Shown one piece after another: positions 2,931 to 62,991 of a DNA stretch of 64,000 bases. Positions within the stretch are counted from its first letter, which is position 1. Each line of letters begins with the position of its first letter. The position numbers and the translations under genes are program-made. The notes under the pieces were generated by a model. The model saw nothing but the letters and a program-made list of their open reading frames with translations, did no database searches and was not told where the DNA came from. The DNA comes from a virus (lineage: Duplodnaviria > Caudoviricetes): the IMG/VR virus record IMGVR_UViG_3300025016_000004; one strand, 5' to 3'.

Positions 2931-3034
2931 ACCTATTTAAATATACCATAAATATACTAAAAAATAATTAAAAAACCTAATTTACTTTATTTTTTATAAA
3001 AATTATTTATCTTATATTTATAATAAAACAAATT

Positions 3035-19298: not shown

Positions 19299-19330
19299 AA
19301 AGAAATATAGATATTTATTAAAAAAGCATA

Positions 19331-21001: not shown

Positions 21002-21066
21002 AGTTTAAAGCTAAGTAATTTCAAACCTTTCTTATCAATTTTCAAGTATTTTAATCTAAATTTTTA

Positions 21067-21074
21067 TATTTATA
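21067..21074 (+). promoter_or_regulatory. Putative late promoter motif TATTTATA (representative copy)
   Basis: TATTTAT(A) also at 914, 3015, 4893, 19312, 26102, 28025, 28571, 30347, 43074, 47715, 50886, 52864, 54907 and 63883, each shortly upstream of a start codon. Confidence 0.6.
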
Positions 21075-34405: not shown

Positions 34406-35383
34406 ATGTCAATGATTGTAAATATATTAGAAAACTTCTTAGGAACCCCTCACTCGCATTATGAGAACAAATCTCAAGTGCAGTTTGACTGCCCTATGTG
34501 TTCTGCTGAGAAGAATAAATATGAAGGTGATGGTAAAGGTAATCTAGCAATCAACTACGAAAAAGGTGTTTATAAATGTTGGAATTGCTGGGAAAGAAAT
34601 AATATGCATGGCTCTTTATTATATTTGATAAGAAAATATGGTAATAAACAACACCTTAAAGATTATTTGCTTATCGCACCTAAAATCATTAAAGATAGAA
34701 GTAAAGAAGAGAAAGATGATATTCTAATAGATGTAAAATTACCTGAATCTTTTAGAGCTTTTAGTGATAGCACTTCTTATAATACAAATCACAATGATGC
34801 ATATCGCTATGTTAAGGGTAGAGGAATAGATAATAACATTCTCCATAAATTTAATATAGGTTATACTTGTGATGGTAAACATAAAGATAGAATTGTAATC
34901 CCTTCATACGATATTAACGGTGAATTAAATTATTATATTGCTAGGTCATTCAATAAGTGGAATAAAACCAAATATTTAAACCCAGAATCTGATGTTGAAG
35001 CCAAAAATAAGAATGAGATTATCTTCAATGAACATAAAGTTAATTGGGATTCAACAATTTATTTAGTGGAAGGTGCCTTCGACCATATCGTAACACCCAA
35101 TTCAATACCTTTATTAGGTAAATTCATTTCAGATAAATTATTTCATGCGTTACAAACCAAAGCAATGGGTAAAGTTGTTATTGTATTAGATGGTGGTGCT
35201 GAGGAAAGAAAAGATATGATACTTTTATATAAAAAGTTAAATACTTTAAATCTATATAATAGAGTTAGAGTTGTTTATCTTGAAGATAAAATGGACTTAT
35301 CATTAATTTATCAAAAACAAGGGCCTAGAGGTATTTTAAGGAATTTAAGACAGGCTGTGAAACTTAAAGAAAGTCGTCTTTAG
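34406..35383 (+). CDS. DNA primase (Zn finger + TOPRIM)
   Basis: CPMC..CWNC; RIVIPSY; LVEGAFD; VLDGG. Confidence 0.88.
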   Translation: MSMIVNILENFLGTPHSHYENKSQVQFDCPMCSAEKNKYEGDGKGNLAINYEKGVYKCWNCWERNNMHGSLLYLIRKYGNKQHLKDYLLIAPKIIKDRSKEEKDDILIDVKLPESFRAFSDSTSYNTNHNDAYRYVKGRGIDNNILHKFNIGYTCDGKHKDRIVIPSYDINGELNYYIARSFNKWNKTKYLNPESDVEAKNKNEIIFNEHKVNWDSTIYLVEGAFDHIVTPNSIPLLGKFISDKLFHALQTKAMGKVVIVLDGGAEERKDMILLYKKLNTLNLYNRVRVVYLEDKMDLSLIYQKQGPRGILRNLRQAVKLKESRL

Positions 35384-36405
35384 AAACTATAATCATCAAA
35401 TCCTTGATAATCTGAAGTACCAATGTTAAATGAATTCGATTGAAACTGTTTAATTGATATTAAGTTAACACCTTTACCTTTATTTTTTAATGTAATTTCT
35501 TTTTCATTAGGGTATTGCATATTATATTTGAAAGTCTCGATTACATCAATATCGTTTTTATTCGCTTTAACTGTTAAAATAAATGGTTGACCTTTACTGT
35601 TTAAATGTGGTTCGGTATAATGAGAACCATCTAAATCATTTTTACTAAGAACATAATGAGAACCTAATTGGATTGTGTTTAAATCATTTTTATTTTCTAA
35701 AAACACAACTCTATATAAAGTTAAAGTATTCGGTAATTTATTAAACATGTTAATTAGATTTTTAAGGTTTTCTTTATTAACATCTAAATCATCGTGAGCA
35801 CCATATTTTAAAAACTCATTATAATTAATTCCCTCTTTAACCATACCAATTTCATATTCATCATCATCAACACCTTCGGTATTTGCATGATGATATGTTA
35901 ATTCTTCATCCACATTATCACCCTTACCCATTATAAAATCTTCATAATACATTTGTAATTGTTTTTCGTTTTGAAAATATTTAACATCATCAGATGGGCT
36001 ATAATTTACCATTTCCCTACCTTTTATGATAACACCGTCATACCCCATTTTTTGCATTTCACCTTCTATTGTAGAATTTTTAAAAAACGCTCTTTGGTCT
36101 GGAAATTTCCCAGTTGAATATTTCATGAATAAATTTCTTTGAGACCATATCTCCCATTCATTTAATGAGTTTACAACTAAAGGTGTTTTAGGTATAGCAC
36201 CAATTAAGAAATATACAGTCCCGTATTCTTTAGCCAAAGCTCTATTCCCTAAAGGAGTGACATATAACCCTAACCCAAGCATTCCACCACCGCCATTTGC
36301 TTGTCCTACATTTTGGACACCTCTAATGGTTACGTTTTTACGTTTCCATTTTAAATACTCCCTGTGGTCATATTCAACTGCCTCATATATATTAAGTAAT
36401 TTCAT
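35380..36405 (-). CDS. Two-domain ADP-ribosyltransferase-like protein with MKL..YE N-terminal motif
   Basis: Domain 1 RG..GLGLYVT..AKEYG..GYDGVII; domain 2 LYRV..LGSHY..EKEITL. Confidence 0.55.
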   Translation of the reverse strand: MKLLNIYEAVEYDHREYLKWKRKNVTIRGVQNVGQANGGGGMLGLGLYVTPLGNRALAKEYGTVYFLIGAIPKTPLVVNSLNEWEIWSQRNLFMKYSTGKFPDQRAFFKNSTIEGEMQKMGYDGVIIKGREMVNYSPSDDVKYFQNEKQLQMYYEDFIMGKGDNVDEELTYHHANTEGVDDDEYEIGMVKEGINYNEFLKYGAHDDLDVNKENLKNLINMFNKLPNTLTLYRVVFLENKNDLNTIQLGSHYVLSKNDLDGSHYTEPHLNSKGQPFILTVKANKNDIDVIETFKYNMQYPNEKEITLKNKGKGVNLISIKQFQSNSFNIGTSDYQGFDDYSF

Positions 36406-36980
36406 TCTACTTTTTCTATTAATTTAATACTATTCGGATTAAACATAATTATATGCTTCTCACCAACCCAATCACTAGGTGGGTCAACAACCAATCCATC
36501 ATAACCTAATTTAGTCATACTTTTAAGATAACGAAGTGGTGTATGTTGATACCACCCATTTAAAATATTAAAGAATACCCCAGCTTCATCACCAGCTGAA
36601 AAAGCAGCTCTTAACGCTTTTTGAAGCCCTTTTTGTGGGTCTTCATCCCAATTTTGTGCTTCCATTTCCCATTCATCTGCATCTTCACCACTCATTTTCA
36701 TAAGTGTTATAATTTCTTGTTTATTAACTTTATAAGAGGGTGTATCGGTTTCTATGAACCTACCAGTTAATTCAACCTTATATACATTCTTACCGAACAT
36801 TCTAGCGTTTTCAAAACTTGTGGCGAAATAAATACCTGGCCCATGATGTTGTGTAACACCTTCACCATCTACGAAACTATCTGAAAACTTCTTTATATCA
36901 TGGTCAGTACCATGATATGCAATAAACGTTTTGGATATTGATTCGGATAAAATATTTTCGTATAAGTTTCTTAATTTCAT
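36402..36980 (-). CDS. ART-PolyVal-like ADP-ribosyltransferase domain protein
   Basis: AYHGT..F..GPGIYFATS..A..FG..VY..GYDGL..IMFNPNSIK. Confidence 0.65.
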   Translation of the reverse strand: MKLRNLYENILSESISKTFIAYHGTDHDIKKFSDSFVDGEGVTQHHGPGIYFATSFENARMFGKNVYKVELTGRFIETDTPSYKVNKQEIITLMKMSGEDADEWEMEAQNWDEDPQKGLQKALRAAFSAGDEAGVFFNILNGWYQHTPLRYLKSMTKLGYDGLVVDPPSDWVGEKHIIMFNPNSIKLIEKVE

Positions 36981-37378
36981 TATACTTTATTTAGCATAAA
37001 TTTGGCGTTAGGAAATAAAACTATTTCCCCACTATCACCATTAGGTAAAACACATATAATTGCGTCATACCCTAACTTCATTAATTTTTTTGTTAAAGAT
37101 TTCCCTTTAGATTTAAATTTATTTGATAATTCATTTTTATATTTAATTAAATTATTATCATTAACATTTATATATAAAGGGTTTTGTAAATAAGCCATTC
37201 CTACGGCATAATTTCCAGTTATTTCCCCATCAAAATCTTTTTCAGTAACATAAATTCCACTAGGTTCAACATCTTGACCAAAACGACTTCCCATATATGG
37301 AGCCTTTTCTAAATTTTTCATTATCTTTAGTTGAACTGATTCATTTAAAACACTTATATATAAATCGTTTAATTTCAT
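36980..37378 (-). CDS. Short ART-like protein
   Basis: SGIYVTE..LQNPLYI..GYDAII..EIVLF. Confidence 0.45.
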   Translation of the reverse strand: MKLNDLYISVLNESVQLKIMKNLEKAPYMGSRFGQDVEPSGIYVTEKDFDGEITGNYAVGMAYLQNPLYINVNDNNLIKYKNELSNKFKSKGKSLTKKLMKLGYDAIICVLPNGDSGEIVLFPNAKFMLNKV

Positions 37379-37776
37379 TATACTTTAAATTGTCTATTGG
37401 TTGTTGAGAAATTCTTTTTTCTCATGATGGTTTTACTCATAAGTTGAATTTCATTTCTAGACTTATCAACACGTAAAACAAAAGGTACGTTTATATTATT
37501 ATTTAAATCAATTATAACAGCTTCAGCTTCTTTATTATAATTCTTTAAACCTTGGCCATGTTTTTTGTATAAACGACTGAATGTATTTATCACTTCTTCA
37601 CCTTCAATTTCTTCACCATTTCTAGGGTCATTGGCTCTATCCAAAAAATGATTGGAAAATTCAATGTCAATATTAAGACTCTTAAACAAATCATCTAAGT
37701 AATCTTCAATTTTCTTTAACCCAGAATTACTGATGTATTCATTCACTACGGATTCAAATATATTACTTAATTTCAT
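37378..37776 (-). CDS. Conserved phage protein with MKL..FE N-terminal motif
   Basis: IEFSNHFLDRANDPRN..INVPFVL; ATG 37776 follows a TATTTAT motif. Confidence 0.55.
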   Translation of the reverse strand: MKLSNIFESVVNEYISNSGLKKIEDYLDDLFKSLNIDIEFSNHFLDRANDPRNGEEIEGEEVINTFSRLYKKHGQGLKNYNKEAEAVIIDLNNNINVPFVLRVDKSRNEIQLMSKTIMRKKNFSTTNRQFKV

Positions 37777-37801
37777 AATAACCAATTCTTTTTAATAAAT
37801 A

Positions 37802-37833
37802 TTTGTTTTTATAGTAAAAATTTAGTATAATTG
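37802..37833 (+). promoter_or_regulatory. Sigma promoter (variant -7 box)
   Basis: TTTG-N20-TATAATTG. Confidence 0.7.
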
Positions 37834-37849
37834 CGTAAAATGATAATAT

Positions 37850-39619
37850 ATGGTAAAAGAATTTGTTGGCCCAGTTTATTTGGAGCCAATTGAACATGTT
37901 TATATTCATAGACAAACAGGTAAACGTTATGGTTCAGTAACCCAAATGTTAGGCTCAATTGAGCATGAATTTGAAACTGAATTGGTTGCAGAAAGAATAT
38001 CAATGCAGCGAGATGACGACCCTAAGAAGAATCCTGATTACCATGGTATGACCATGGAACAAATTTTAGATTATTGGCAATACTTGAATGATAGTGCCAA
38101 CGAATACGGAACATATGTTCATGAAACAGTTGAAACGTATCTTTTAAAACAAAAATGGTGGTATCCAACAGATGAGTTGCAGAAAGCTGTTATAAAGGCG
38201 TATAATGAATTAGAAGTTGATGAAGGTAAGTGTGTATACCCAGAGCGAATTATGTTTTCGGAAAAATATAGTCTAGCGGGGACTGCCGATTTAAAAATTG
38301 ATATTGATGATGAATGGTTTGATATTGGAGATTGGAAAGGGTTACCAATTGATACCCCAATATTCACTAATAATGGATGGAAAACTATGGGTAGTGTATC
38401 ATATGGTGATAAAGTTTATGACATGGATGGTAATCTATGTGATATATTACATTTTTCTGGGGTAAAAAATAAAGATTGTTTTGAAATTGAATTTGATAAT
38501 GGTGAAATAATTATCGCAGATTACGAACATAGATGGTTAATATCTTTTATGCGTGATGGTAATTTTACTGATAAAGTTATGACTACTGATGAACTATTCG
38601 ACTATACCACTGAATTAAATAAAAGTAATAAAAGATGGTCGCATAAAATACCTAAAATTAAGATAACCAAACCGTTAAATAATCCGAATATCACATTACC
38701 CTTAGACCCTTATTTGTTAGGTGTATGGTTAGGTGATGGGCATAAAACTGACACCAAGATAACTAATATGAATAAAAAAATGTGGTTAGAATTGGAAAGA
38801 CGTGGTTATGAATTAGGTGGTGATGTAAGCCAAGGTGGTTCTGGTAAAGCTCAAACTAGAACAGTTTTAAATGTGAGTAATATATTTAATGAATTAAATT
38901 TAATTCAAAATAAGCATATACCAGATATATTTTTAATGGCATCACATGAACAACGGCTTGATTTATTGCGTGGGTTTATGGATACCGATGGTCATTATAA
39001 TTCATCACGTAAAAGATTTGTTATGTCAACAACTAGAGAGTGGCAAGCAAATGAATTTAATAAATTAGTATCATCATTAGGTATTAAAACAACAGTAATT
39101 AGGTATAAGAAAAAAGCTATGGGTAAAATTATTAATGTAATTGATATTTGTTTTAGTACTAACAATTTAAACCCATTTTTAACTAGAGATGATTTAAAAA
39201 TTGAATATACTAAGATAAATAATAAAACGTTTAAAAATATTGTTTCAGTTAAAAAAGTGAAATCAGTACCAACTAGATGTATTGAAGTTGATAGCCCAAG
39301 TAGTACTTTTTTATATGGCTATAATTTTGGTGTAACACATAACACTAATAAAAGGTTTGAGTTTTATAGCCCATTTGGTCAAACACTTAAAAAACCTTTC
39401 AACCATTTACAACAATGTCATCATTCAACATATAGTTTACAGTTAAGTGTGTACGCTAAAATGTGTGAGGAAGAAACTGGAATGAAATGTAGACAAATAT
39501 GGATAGGATATTGGAGTAGGGAAACTGAAAAGTTTACTAGAATCCCAATTACATATCTTAAACACGAAGCAACACAACTATTGGAGCTTCACAAATATAA
39601 TAAAGAAATAGCTACTTAA
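37850..39619 (+). CDS. PD-(D/E)XK (Cas4-like, no Fe-S cluster) exonuclease containing an intein
   Basis: YGTYVHE, AGTADL, DWK|TNK split by intein, YSLQLSVYAKM. Confidence 0.85.
   Translation: MVKEFVGPVYLEPIEHVYIHRQTGKRYGSVTQMLGSIEHEFETELVAERISMQRDDDPKKNPDYHGMTMEQILDYWQYLNDSANEYGTYVHETVETYLLKQKWWYPTDELQKAVIKAYNELEVDEGKCVYPERIMFSEKYSLAGTADLKIDIDDEWFDIGDWKGLPIDTPIFTNNGWKTMGSVSYGDKVYDMDGNLCDILHFSGVKNKDCFEIEFDNGEIIIADYEHRWLISFMRDGNFTDKVMTTDELFDYTTELNKSNKRWSHKIPKIKITKPLNNPNITLPLDPYLLGVWLGDGHKTDTKITNMNKKMWLELERRGYELGGDVSQGGSGKAQTRTVLNVSNIFNELNLIQNKHIPDIFLMASHEQRLDLLRGFMDTDGHYNSSRKRFVMSTTREWQANEFNKLVSSLGIKTTVIRYKKKAMGKIINVIDICFSTNNLNPFLTRDDLKIEYTKINNKTFKNIVSVKKVKSVPTRCIEVDSPSSTFLYGYNFGVTHNTNKRFEFYSPFGQTLKKPFNHLQQCHHSTYSLQLSVYAKMCEEETGMKCRQIWIGYWSRETEKFTRIPITYLKHEATQLLELHKYNKEIAT
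38339..39343 (+). mobile_element. Class-3-type intein (335 aa, Gly1) with LAGLIDADG endonuclease
   Basis: GLPIDTPIFT; ADYEHRW; YLLGVWLGDG; LLRGFMDTDG; VPTRCIEV; VTHN followed by Thr. Confidence 0.85.
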
Positions 39620-39650: not shown

Positions 39651-39977
39651 TTATTGAGTTATTGTTTTAAATTTTTTATATTTTCTATCTAAACCTATAT
39701 TATCATAATTTTTGTATATATACTCACCTAATTTAATAATTCCATCTTTATTGGTTATTCTTAAGTAAGATGAGGATGATTTTAAATTTTTATTTCTTTT
39801 TATTTTATAATTGATTTGTAATTCATCACATAAAGATTCGAAATAACCCCAATCTTGTTCATATGTTGACGCTAAAGCAAATTGTCTTAATGTTGAGCCT
39901 AATTTTGGTTTATAATAATAAAAACAACCATCACCATCAATTAACCCTCGAAACCAATAATGTTTTAATTTATTCAT
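39651..39977 (-). mobile_element. Short single-motif LAGLIDADG endonuclease (possibly a remnant)
   Basis: WFRGLIDGDGCFYY; 108 aa. Confidence 0.65.
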
Positions 39978-46897: not shown

Positions 46898-47707
46898 ATG
46901 AAAGAACACATAATAACGGATAGGAGTGATACGCTTACTAAATATTTTAAAGATATAAATAAATCAGATTTATTAACAGTTGAAGAAGAAACCAACATAG
47001 CTAATAGAATTCAAAATGGTGATAAAGAAGCTATTGATGAATTAGTTAAAGCAAATTTAAAATTTGTAATTAGTGTGGCTAAAGAATTTCAAGGGTTAGG
47101 ATTACCGCTACCAGATTTGATTAGTGAAGGTAATTTAGGTTTAATGAAAGCTTCAACTAGATTTGACCCTACTAGGGGGTTTAGATTTATATCTTATGCT
47201 GTATATTGGATTAAACAATCCATAATGCAAAGCTTGAATGAAAATTCAAGAATGATTAGATTACCAGCTAATATTATCCATAAAATAGGTCAATTAAATA
47301 AAAAAACATCTGAAGAATTTTCAAAAGAAAAAGCTGAGGACGAAGAAACCGTATATCCAACTTGCGTATCATTAAACACAACATTAAATTCACAAATGGG
47401 TGAATCTTTTAGTACTGAGTTAAGTGATATGATAATTGATGATAGCGTTGATAAATTAGATGTTTTAGAACATGAAACTGAAAGATTAAAACGAGCCGTT
47501 AATAATACACTTAATTGTTTAGATGAACGTGAGCGTGGTATTATTGAATGTTACTTCGGGTTAAATACGCATTGTGAACCAATGACATTAGAAGCTATTG
47601 GTGATAGATATGATTTAACCAAAGAGAGAATTAGACAGATTAAAGAAAAGGCTATTAGACGCTTAAGACATAACAACATGGAGTTGTATTCTTTGATTAA
47701 TTCATAA
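46898..47707 (+). CDS. Sigma-70 family RNA polymerase sigma factor, Bacteroidota primary-sigma-like
   Basis: LVKANLKFVISVAK, DLISEGNLGL, RFDPTRGFRFISYAVYWIKQSI, TLEAIG..LTKERIRQIKEKAIRRL; no region 1.1. Confidence 0.92.
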   Translation: MKEHIITDRSDTLTKYFKDINKSDLLTVEEETNIANRIQNGDKEAIDELVKANLKFVISVAKEFQGLGLPLPDLISEGNLGLMKASTRFDPTRGFRFISYAVYWIKQSIMQSLNENSRMIRLPANIIHKIGQLNKKTSEEFSKEKAEDEETVYPTCVSLNTTLNSQMGESFSTELSDMIIDDSVDKLDVLEHETERLKRAVNNTLNCLDERERGIIECYFGLNTHCEPMTLEAIGDRYDLTKERIRQIKEKAIRRLRHNNMELYSLINS

Positions 47708-47735
47708 ACTACCATATTTATATAAAAATAAAATT

Positions 47736-60752: not shown

Positions 60753-61793
60753 ATGAGTAAAGACTTATATAAAATTCTGGAAATTGATAAAAATGCCAGC
60801 GAAAGTGATATTAAAAAAGCTTATCGTACTATGGCAAAAAAATACCATCCAGATAAGAATCCAGATAATAAAGAAGCTGAGCAAAAATTCAAAGACGTTG
60901 CTGAAGCTTATGAAGTATTGAGTGACCCTAATAAAAAAGCTAGGTATGATTCGATGGGTTATGATGCGTATAATGGTGGCCCTACTCAAAACCATGCGAA
61001 TCCCCATGATATGTTTGCAAATTTCTTCAACTCTATGCGAGAGCAACAAGAAAATGAACAACTTAAAAGGCAACACACCATTATTCAAAAAATAGCTTTG
61101 ACTATGGAAGAAGTTTATCATGGTGTGACCAAGAAATTTAAATATAAAAGGTCAGTTAAATGCGGTACTTGTAATGGTAAAGGTGGTGAGAATATAGTTA
61201 GATGTGAAGCGTGTAACGGGCAAGGCGTTCAATATAGAATTATACAAACTCAACTTGGTAGAATGCAAGAAACCATTTCATGTAATTCATGTAGTGGTCG
61301 AGGGTTTAAAATTGGTAAGACATGTAATTCATGTAGTGGTCAGGGTCTCGTTAGAGTAGATGAAATTTTAGAAGTTAAAATACCTCATAGTGTAATGCCT
61401 AACCAACATATAGTATCCCGTAATAAAGGTCATTATTATGCCGATAGAAGTGGTGAACGTTATGGTGATATGGTAATGTTAGTTGAAATAAATCAAGATA
61501 AGTACACAATTATTGAAGATTATGGTTTGATGTCTAAAGTTGATATACCATATGAAGTAATGGTATTGGGCGGTGAATTTACCTTTGATTCGGTAGATGG
61601 TTCTAAGGTAAAGGTACCAGTTTCTAAATTAAGTGATATAGGTCATAAATTAAAATTAAAGGGTAAAGGATTGAAAAACCCTAATCAAAGTGTAAGAGGG
61701 GACCAATACATTATGCTTGATTTAAAATTCCCTACAGAAATTACAGAAGAAGAAGAAAAATTACTTAATGAATTAAAAAAATTAAAGGGATAG
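60753..61793 (+). CDS. dnaJ: DnaJ chaperone
   Basis: J-domain with HPD; four CxxCxGxG repeats; C-terminal GDQYI..FP. Confidence 0.95.
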
Positions 61794-62286: not shown

Positions 62287-62991
62287 ATGGGATTAGATTT
62301 TTATAGTGAATTTAAAGATTATGCTATAAAGCATATGGGGATAAGTAGTATGCAATTACATTATTGGGAAAAAACTCAGAATAATATTTATGGTAATTGT
62401 ATGGTCACGGGTAGTATGACACCTATGGTATTAGAGGAAAGACCAATTAGGGTAAGCCAAATGTCAGTATTTGACAGACTTATGATGGATAGAATACTTT
62501 GGTTAGCTGGACCTGTTAATGATTTAATGAGCACAACAGTTCAAGCTCAACTTCTATTTTTAGAAAGCGTTGATAAAAATAAAGATATTACGATTTATGT
62601 AGATTCACCAGGTGGAAGCGTTAAGTCAGGATTATCAATGATTGATAACATGATGTTATGTGAAGCTGATATTAGAACAGTAAATACTGGTATGGCCGCT
62701 TCAATGGGTTCATTGTTGTTAGGTGCTGGAACTAAAGGTAAACGTAGTACGTTAAGATTTAGTAGAGTGATGTTACATCAAGTATCATCAGGTTATGAAG
62801 GTAATATTCAAGACATAGAAATTTCATTTCAAGAATCAAAAAAATACAATAAAACATTATTTGATTTATTAGGTGGTTTTTGTGATAAAGACCCTAAAAA
62901 AGTCATGGAAGATGCTAGTCGAGATTTATGGATGAATGCTGAAGAAGCCTTAACTTATGGAATAGTAGATGAAATAATTACTAAGAAATAA
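62287..62991 (+). CDS. clpP: ATP-dependent Clp protease proteolytic subunit
   Basis: DSPGGSV, GMAASMG (Ser), VMLHQ (His), RDLWM (Asp); Bacteroidota-style N-terminal extension. Confidence 0.95.
   Translation: MGLDFYSEFKDYAIKHMGISSMQLHYWEKTQNNIYGNCMVTGSMTPMVLEERPIRVSQMSVFDRLMMDRILWLAGPVNDLMSTTVQAQLLFLESVDKNKDITIYVDSPGGSVKSGLSMIDNMMLCEADIRTVNTGMAASMGSLLLGAGTKGKRSTLRFSRVMLHQVSSGYEGNIQDIEISFQESKKYNKTLFDLLGGFCDKDPKKVMEDASRDLWMNAEEALTYGIVDEIITKK

Follow-up and report, generated by a model that had tools for sequence, protein, structure and literature searches.

Why do four neighbouring phage genes with different products begin with nearly the same residues? The question is raised by a stretch of 64,000 nucleotides (the window; IMG/VR record IMGVR_UViG_3300025016_000004) that comes from a giant, uncultured, AT-rich and very diverged tailed phage. 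Between positions 35380 and 37776 it carries four open reading frames (ORFs), here called P0001 to P0004, arranged head to tail on the minus strand. Neighbours overlap by 1-4 bases, hence P0001-P0004 form one operon and are translationally coupled. The operon is antisense to both of its flanks, a primase gene (34406-35383, plus strand) and an intein-bearing gene (37850-39619, plus strand). A preliminary description of the window had reported an antisense array of four genes with a common leader, opposite to replication genes; we find the array as described, down to the exact N-termini. Our answer to the question is that the shared start is most likely a targeting tag: on balance, we favour the reading that all four products are enzymes marked with a capsid-targeting sequence (CTS), carried as cargo in the phage head and injected with the DNA. 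The genes and their leaders are as follows.

37378..37776, minus strand: P0001, 132 amino acids; leader (residues 1-13) and a predicted RegB-like endoribonuclease domain with a RelE/BECR-type fold
37738..37776, minus strand: leader of P0001, MKLSNIFESVVNE, ending in V-N-E
36980..37378, minus strand: P0002, 132 amino acids; leader and a predicted, diverged ART-PolyVal-like domain (K18, Y43, D105)
37340..37378, minus strand: leader of P0002, MKLNDLYISVLNE, ending in L-N-E
36402..36980, minus strand: P0003, 192 amino acids; leader and an ART-PolyVal ADP-ribosyltransferase (ART) domain (H23, Y51, D161)
36942..36980, minus strand: leader of P0003, MKLRNLYENILSE, ending in L-S-E
35380..36405, minus strand: P0004, 341 amino acids; leader, N-terminal R-Y-D module, acidic linker and a C-terminal domain with a predicted R-S-ExE ART fold
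36373..36405, minus strand: leader of P0004, MKLLNIYEAVE, ending in A-V-E

The start of P0001 is the ATG at 37776 and not the TTG at 37785, a choice that is backed by ten homologues starting with MKLS or MKLT.

The leader stands out from everything else in the window. Its consensus across the four genes is MKLxN[IL][YF], and among all ORFs of at least 40 amino acids in the six reading frames the pattern M[KR]L..[ILVM][FYW] is found at the start of these four and no others. When the first 13 residues of the four genes are scored against each other, they take the top four places among 891 candidate starts. Their mutual scores of 22.7-32 lie 4-5.6 standard deviations above the mean (mean -8.8, standard deviation 7.2), and the next best score is 15.3. 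In the AlphaFold model of P0001 the leader is a low-confidence helix outside the domain core. In P0004 the conserved domain (YxHxEYLKWKRKNV) starts right behind the leader, and it does so in the homologues too.

How does this leader compare with the CTS of phage T4? The T4 prohead protease gp21 cleaves at the motif (L/I)-x-E (PMC9026906). In 32 of 42 RegB-like relatives [LIVM]-x-E forms the last residues of the leader, precisely where the domain starts, an ending that, judged by sequence, matches the gp21 rule. Within the window the leaders of P0002 (L-N-E) and P0003 (L-S-E) fit the (L/I)-x-E rule, and that of P0001 (V-N-E) is a near fit. The leader is also a separable module. Counting the window and its homologues, it stands in front of five or more unrelated domains; it is missing entirely from some RegB-like homologues, and the domain that makes up the C-terminal half of P0004 is found in homologues on its own, straight after a leader.

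Leaders resemble each other more within a phage locus than between loci (mean best score 12.6 versus 6.0 for 31 distinct leaders; Wilcoxon p 0.0016), as would be expected of a tag that is read by a phage-specific receptor. The best match of a leader is usually the same-strand neighbour gene, and neighbouring genes share phage-specific flavours such as MKLxN[IL]YE, MIKLKxLLxE and MKxFKxYLxE.

The link to T4 itself runs via intermediates in the family, because the window leaders stay within background when they are compared with the T4 tag. The T4 genes ipII and ipIII start with MKTYQEFIAE (T4 genome). Some orthologues in other phages, and many of their neighbours, start with near-canonical T4 tags (MKTFKQFIRE, MISFKEYIAE, MKTYKHFIES and MKKFSEFITE), and orthologue leaders score up to 30 against the T4 CTS, above every background ORF. 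Therefore, the slot taken by the window leader is the CTS slot in T4-like phages. The preliminary description had called the leader T4-like. This holds for a separable tag with an end of the prohead-protease type, but it does not hold for the window leaders taken by themselves, which are no closer to the T4 tag than background.

Fusion proteins retain the same ending. At the joint between their domains we find V-[LI]-x-E-E, which equals the C-terminal half of the leader, regardless of which domain comes first; in P0004 the joint is N-V-D-E-E. As far as such motifs go, this suggests polyproteins that may be cut apart by the same protease. Of the six IMG/VR records with a RegB-like gene and a completeness of 64% or more, five encode a T4-type prohead protease of the Peptidase_S77 family (PF03420).

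The content of the cassette varies as well. Genes flanking it are 60-76% identical to those of the nearest relative (L001/L005), but the only cassette members shared with that relative are the RNase (72% identical) and the ART-PolyVal protein (43% identical); the rest have been replaced. In this the cassette resembles the hypervariable internal-protein loci of T4.

In the mechanism that we propose, the amphipathic leader of 11-13 residues would act on each protein like the CTS of T4. It would dock the protein to the scaffolding core during prohead assembly. A T4-type prohead protease would then cut the leader off after the Glu of the hydrophobic-x-Glu site, and the same protease may also cut the V-D-E-E joint within P0004. 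In T4, exchanging this Glu for Asp stops processing and leaves targeting intact. The mature enzymes would remain in the head and reach the next host along with the DNA. In the new host, mRNAs of the host or of competitors would be cleaved by the RegB-like RNase, and the ART-type enzymes (one H-Y-D, one R-S-ExE and two diverged) would use NAD+ to ADP-ribosylate host targets or defence proteins. Docking, cleavage, packaging, injection, enzyme activity and targets are all steps that we infer. ARTs packaged in the heads of myoviruses are an established or predicted theme (PMC5512222, PMC9503650), and one of these studies predicts that packaging is frequent (PMC9503650).

What would be delivered? 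The first gene of the operon is predicted to encode an RNase. The AlphaFold model of P0001 has a mean confidence (predicted local distance difference test, pLDDT) of 87.6, and its top structural match among 48,161 PDB representatives is T4 RegB (2hx6; Z 6.8 over 108 aligned residues), with RelE toxins next in rank. The invariant F-S-x-H-F-L-D-R-A of the P0001 family aligns with Y-S-Q-H48-L-L-D-R52-A of RegB (T4 genome), so that both proteins carry [YF]-S-x-H-x-L-D-R-A around His48 and H43/R47 of P0001 correspond to H48/R52. RegB has two catalytic histidines, one of which is His48 (PMC3014915). The second, His68, is not conserved: the P0001 family contains no second invariant His. Invariant instead are R52, N53, E61, R119 and K120, and the conserved Arg, Lys and Glu are reminiscent of RelE. 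Against the Pfam family RegB (PF10715) P0001 stays below the gathering score (E 0.031, 14.8 bits versus 27). RegB further differs from P0001 in being leaderless, early and unpackaged. Judged by model and alignment, P0001 is thus a predicted RegB-like endoribonuclease with a RegB/RelE-like mode of action, in a family of its own. This family is very common in viral contigs (at least 567 loci). The preliminary description had set the HFLDR protein apart as the member of the array that is not an ART, which is correct; it need no longer be treated as an unknown, since fold and His48 motif point to a RegB-like RNase.

The second and third genes are linked to the ART-PolyVal family to different degrees. 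P0003 matches Pfam ART-PolyVal (PF18760) with an E value of 2.8e-11 (44.8 bits, cut-off 31.2). ART-PolyVal enzymes have a triad of His in strand 1, Tyr in strand 2 and Asp in strand 5 (Iyer et al. 2017, PMC5512222). H23, Y51 and D161 of P0003 form this H-Y-D triad and are invariant in the family alignment (A4). P0003 is a bona fide ART-PolyVal domain. P0002 has no Pfam match. Its ESM Atlas model superimposes on ART-PolyVal clusters with template-modelling (TM) scores of 0.56-0.66, and its language-model features match clusters of ART-PolyVal (0.93) and of the anti-CRISPR ART AcrIF11 (0.86). By hhalign it matches the P0003 family with 92% probability over the C-terminal GYD block and the family of the N-terminal half of P0004 with 70%. 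From profiles and model we take P0002 to be a diverged relative of ART-PolyVal, a putative K-Y-D variant.

P0004 consists of two modules and a joint.

35929..36372, minus strand: N-terminal half (residues ~12-159); conserved mobile module WKRKNVTxRG .. GxGLY .. GYDG with R28, Y48 and D123
35821..35928, minus strand: acidic joint (residues ~160-195); ..NVDEE, then LTYHHA..DDEYEIGMVKEG
35383..35820, minus strand: core of the C-terminal half (residues ~196-341); predicted ART fold with R232, S249/H250 and E301-x-E303

The N-terminal half is conserved as well as mobile. We found 90 homologous segments with 46-68% identity, which occupy N-terminal, internal or C-terminal positions in multidomain proteins and are fused to ART-PolyVal, Nudix, GNAT and kinase partners. 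None of the 90 members has a Pfam match for this module. An hhalign comparison with the P0003 family (A4) gives a probability of 68% (E 4.7e-5) and the same order of motifs, and for P0007, a stand-alone homologue, ART-PolyVal is a top feature match in the Atlas (0.92). From these profile comparisons the module is quite likely an Arg-Tyr-Asp variant of the ART-PolyVal superfamily. Whether the R-Y-D and K-Y-D variants, the N-terminal half of P0004 and P0002, are active is uncertain on sequence grounds. Metagenomic proteins that combine the R-Y-D module with Nudix, GNAT and AAA-kinase-like domains include P0019-P0021, P0041, P0042, P0047, P0050 and P0068. Because of its fusions to Nudix, GNAT and kinase-like domains, we count the module as part of a toolkit for conflicts over NAD+ and ADP-ribose.

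The joint had been noticed before as an internal acidic linker. It lies at residues ~160-195 and is predicted to be disordered, with pLDDT below 50 over the first 26 residues of the model of the C-terminal half. Homologues have V-[LI]-x-E-E at this place, followed by LTYRHA; stand-alone proteins have LTYRHA immediately behind the leader. The acidic, predicted-disordered segment LTYRHA .. G .. DDEYEIGMVKE is conserved in P0006, P0008-P0010, P0013, P0016 and P0181. It precedes at least three different domains (an R-S-E ART, a GNAT-like domain and an unknown domain), and it may serve as a second signal, for sorting or ejection.

The C-terminal half is modelled with pLDDT above 90 over its core, and its best fold matches are all ARTs: TreX/TreTu, the A1 subunits of cholera toxin and LT, scabin, pierisin, PltA, pertussis S1 and DraT. 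The scores of these matches are modest (Z 4-5.3; Foldseek probability up to 0.92). T4 Alt, ModA and ModB are absent from the best matches. R232, S249/H250 and E301-x-E303 are located on strands 1, 2 and 5: the Arg is in strand 1, the Ser where strand 2 begins and the Glu-x-Glu just ahead of strand 5. In this the half resembles the R-S-E ARTs (DraT, cholera/LT A1, TreX/TreTu and the Alt/VIP2 clade), whose signature is Arg, Ser-x-Ser and Glu-x-Glu. Unlike them, it matches no Pfam ART family and has an invariant His250: R, H and ExE are invariant in the alignment (A3), but the Ser beside His250 varies in two homologues. There is no relation to the P0003 family (hhalign probability 0.2%). As modelled, the C-terminal half appears to have an R-S-E-class ART fold and is not a sequence relative of T4 Alt.

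Taken together, Pfam, structures and features, hhalign and the fold model bear out the count of about four ART-type domains in three genes that the preliminary description had given. Its claim that the payloads are unrelated beyond their fold has to be dropped, since hhalign shows distant homology among three of these ART domains. Its picture of Alt-like effectors describes the strategy well, but not the family: just one domain appears to belong to the R-S-E class, and Alt has no relative here at the sequence level.

How is the operon expressed? The motif ATATTTAT (37795..37802, minus strand) lies 18 nucleotides upstream of the first ATG and is likely the promoter element of the four genes. 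It occurs 12-29 nucleotides upstream of 13 of the 71 window genes, compared with 1% of 45-nucleotide background windows. Besides the cassette, it precedes a gene for a baseplate wedge (3035), genes of the tail region (19331, 21088 and 30383) and also three genes of the homing-endonuclease type. Example sites in the window are the following.

3014-3021: ATATTTAT site
19311-19318: ATATTTAT site
21066-21073: ATATTTAT site
47714-47721: ATATTTAT site
52863-52870: ATATTTAT site

ATATTTAT is probably the phage's own promoter element. Its distribution is compatible with an operon that is co-expressed with structural genes, although the homing-endonuclease genes have the motif too. An upstream motif had already been pointed out for the array; it is confirmed and turns out to be common to baseplate and tail genes. 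Scans of the locus for sigma-70 promoters and terminators gave counts at chance level. The same phage encodes a sigma-70-like factor (46898-47707).

Within the operon the three internal junctions (minus strand, 36978-36994, 37376-37392 and 36403-36419) are alike over about 17 nucleotides, AAAGTATAATGAAATTA. This sequence encodes ..K-V-stop overlapping Met-Lys-Leu, such that the stop of the upstream gene overlaps the start of the downstream gene. A junction of this kind could favour the recombinational shuffling of modules.

Several observations weigh against cargo in the head. When the four window leaders are compared with MKTYQEFIAE, their BLOSUM scores are -6 to 5, which 9-48% of background ORFs reach. 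The leader of P0004 has a non-canonical end, A-V-E, with I-Y-E present at residues 6-8. P0002 has a Lys (K18) where the His or Arg of strand 1 is expected, and may be inactive as far as its sequence tells. The head module and the prohead protease of the phage lie outside the 64-kb window, and the operon is found among replication genes instead of beside head genes. In T4, RegB, ModA and ModB are early proteins that are not packaged (PMC3014915, PMC5512222). Finally, the ART-PolyVal homologue CBB_455 of the cultured jumbo phage CBB is not listed as a protein that mass spectrometry picked up from CBB virions, nor is it among the structural proteins that are shared with GAP32 or RaK2; this virion survey was gel-based and covered about 55 proteins, and low-copy cargo could escape it. 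Even so, it supplies the one direct observation on packaging that we found, a negative one. CBB_455 does have a leader-like start, and CBB has a homologue of gp21. The unpackaged T4 proteins, the position of the operon, the absence of CBB_455 from the detected proteins and the lack of significant similarity to the T4 CTS would be expected if the enzymes served host takeover or anti-defence in the cell in which they are made. The N-terminal helix would then serve translation start, oligomerisation, partner binding or a timed turnover by the phage's Clp system; with a cellular-type ClpP (NCBIfam 2.4e-71) and a DnaJ among the phage genes, tag-directed proteolysis is conceivable. We rate this account as possible but rather doubtful. 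It leaves unexplained why the tag of 32 out of 42 relatives ends in [LIVM]-x-E where the domain begins, why V-[LI]-x-E-E is retained at fusion joints and why orthologues carry near-canonical T4 CTS decamers, and the ATATTTAT upstream of the operon is one that baseplate and tail genes have in common.

Might the operon be a toxin island instead, with superinfection exclusion, competition between phages or abortive functions as its purpose? Its products would then target rival phages or the very cell that makes them, with the leader left over from a common ancestor. RelE/RegB-like RNases and small ARTs (TreX, TreTu, ParT) are indeed typical toxin domains and the nearest structural matches here. 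However, small genes resembling immunity or antitoxin genes do not lie alongside; the four genes abut each other and the flanking primase; the family is overwhelmingly viral; and a leader that is kept across unrelated payloads looks like a working signal and not like a remnant. We therefore find a toxin island improbable. Even less credit is due to the view that the shared start is a functionless trace of the tandem duplication of one ancestral gene. Some duplication did occur, since three payload domains are distant homologues, and the gene junctions are alike over the ~17 nucleotides of AAAGTATAATGAAATTA. Yet the RNase fold of P0001 and the C-terminal half of P0004 are unrelated to the other domains and stand behind the same leader, the leader stayed conserved while the payloads fell below 30% identity, and it recurs on other domains in other phages. 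Even jointly, all readings other than head cargo and the unpackaged operon are unlikely.

If the four proteins are head cargo, how do they relate to known systems? The CTS and internal proteins of T4, Alt, polyvalent effectors and predicted head-packaged ARTs of myoviruses (PMC9503650) are already known. We regard the present case as an extension of the CTS and internal-protein strategy of T4, larger and differently stocked, and not as a new kind of system. As in T4, where such tags have 10-19 residues, otherwise unrelated proteins are preceded by a short N-terminal tag (11-13 residues here) with an aromatic residue at position 7 and, except in P0004, a hydrophobic-x-Glu end or a near fit to it. 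Behind the conserved tag the payloads are hypervariable, and ARTs are among the cargo (Alt in T4). Orthologues of P0001 in other T4-like phages, for example of the Melnitz or phiM12 type, have decamers nearly identical to MKTYQEFIAE. In contrast to T4, the window tag is diverged and longer and does not score against the T4 tag; the products are predicted enzymes (RNase, ART-PolyVal type), whereas the internal proteins of T4 are small and basic; and the genes form a single coupled operon beside the primase gene.

The second relative is the class of polyvalent proteins of phages and conjugative elements (Iyer et al. 2017, PMC5512222), which contain the same H-Y-D ART family (PF18760). Homologues of the N-terminal half of P0004 are fused to partners characteristic of that class such as GNAT, plus Nudix and kinase-like domains, and polyvalent proteins too are predicted to be effectors delivered with the DNA. 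The differences lie in the architecture. Polyvalent proteins combine two to fifteen effector domains, whereas in the window most domains have a small gene and a leader to themselves: P0004 has two, P0001-P0003 have one each, and homologues have three or more. The multidomain versions found here keep a protease-type site at the joint, and there is no fusion to an MPTase, MuF or portal domain.

Four features are new: probably, a RegB-like RNase as head cargo; ART-PolyVal-type genes that are split and individually tagged; a cut-site motif that is retained at fusion joints; and an R-Y-D module that is highly conserved and as yet unnamed. Should the tag function in the proposed way, it provides a sequence rule for predicting the injected head cargo of uncultured T4-type and jumbo phages. 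ART-PolyVal enzymes and a RegB-like RNase would then join the Alt-type ARTs and small internal proteins already known as cargo. The N-terminal half of P0004, conserved and mobile and in no Pfam family, is an attractive target for biochemistry.

A more general scheme can be put forward tentatively, as something we consider possible but would not bet on. T4-type jumbo phages may build injected arsenals from a grammar, in which a lineage-specific leader and a hydrophobic-x-Glu site are combined with an interchangeable enzyme module, either as separate genes or as polyproteins that the prohead protease would cut in the head. Such arsenals would include a RegB-like RNase that destroys host messages at injection, before phage expression, and LTYRHA..DDEYEIG would act as a further sorting or ejection signal.

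RegB-like domains also turn up in larger proteins elsewhere. In Sinorhizobium phage phiM12 the domain forms the C-terminal end of a 602-amino-acid protein (SmphiM12_458, L106:1582-3390). Its gene and that for the gp61 primase are ~1.3 kb apart, which repeats the proximity to a primase seen in the window. The paper on the related phage phiM9 makes no mention of the homologue M12_458. A complete but unrelated jumbo phage genome of 342 kb (G003, L090:9776-19522) has a gene cluster whose products start with MRLYDLFENE, MRLDEVEQP, MRLHEFKIE and MKLTQLTES. The cluster encodes a 502-amino-acid RegB-like fusion, a cytidylyltransferase-like protein and a 1216-amino-acid protein with HD, CCA/poly(A) polymerase and NT5C domains; it may be another cluster of tagged cargo. 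As a proxy for the window phage G003 is unusable, with only four proteins in common.

DNA and protein searches of phage collections yielded no close relative of the locus or of P0004, the primase as query found no relative among viral contigs, and the exact pattern of the P0001 start had zero matches in viral and metagenome contigs. Pfam, PHROGs and NCBIfam gave no match for P0002, P0004 and most structural genes of the window, and profile searches of three families against PDB sequences returned chance-level matches only.

Other genes in the window include a gp6-like baseplate wedge, SbcCD-like genes, the sigma-70-like factor mentioned above and an amidase. Genes for ClpP and a full DnaJ adjoin (62287-62991 and 60753-61793). 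By its NCBIfam matches this ClpP is a cellular one (ClpP 2.4e-71 versus head-maturation ClpP 1.7e-17), which rules it out as the head protease. The phage thus seems to bring its own proteostasis genes, and the best ClpP model, PRK14514, may hint at its host. The gene of 589 amino acids beside the cassette (37850-39619) contains an intein insert of the LAGLIDADG type (Pfam LAGLIDADG_3, 3e-6), and a free LAGLIDADG-like ORF is located at 39651-39977 on the minus strand.

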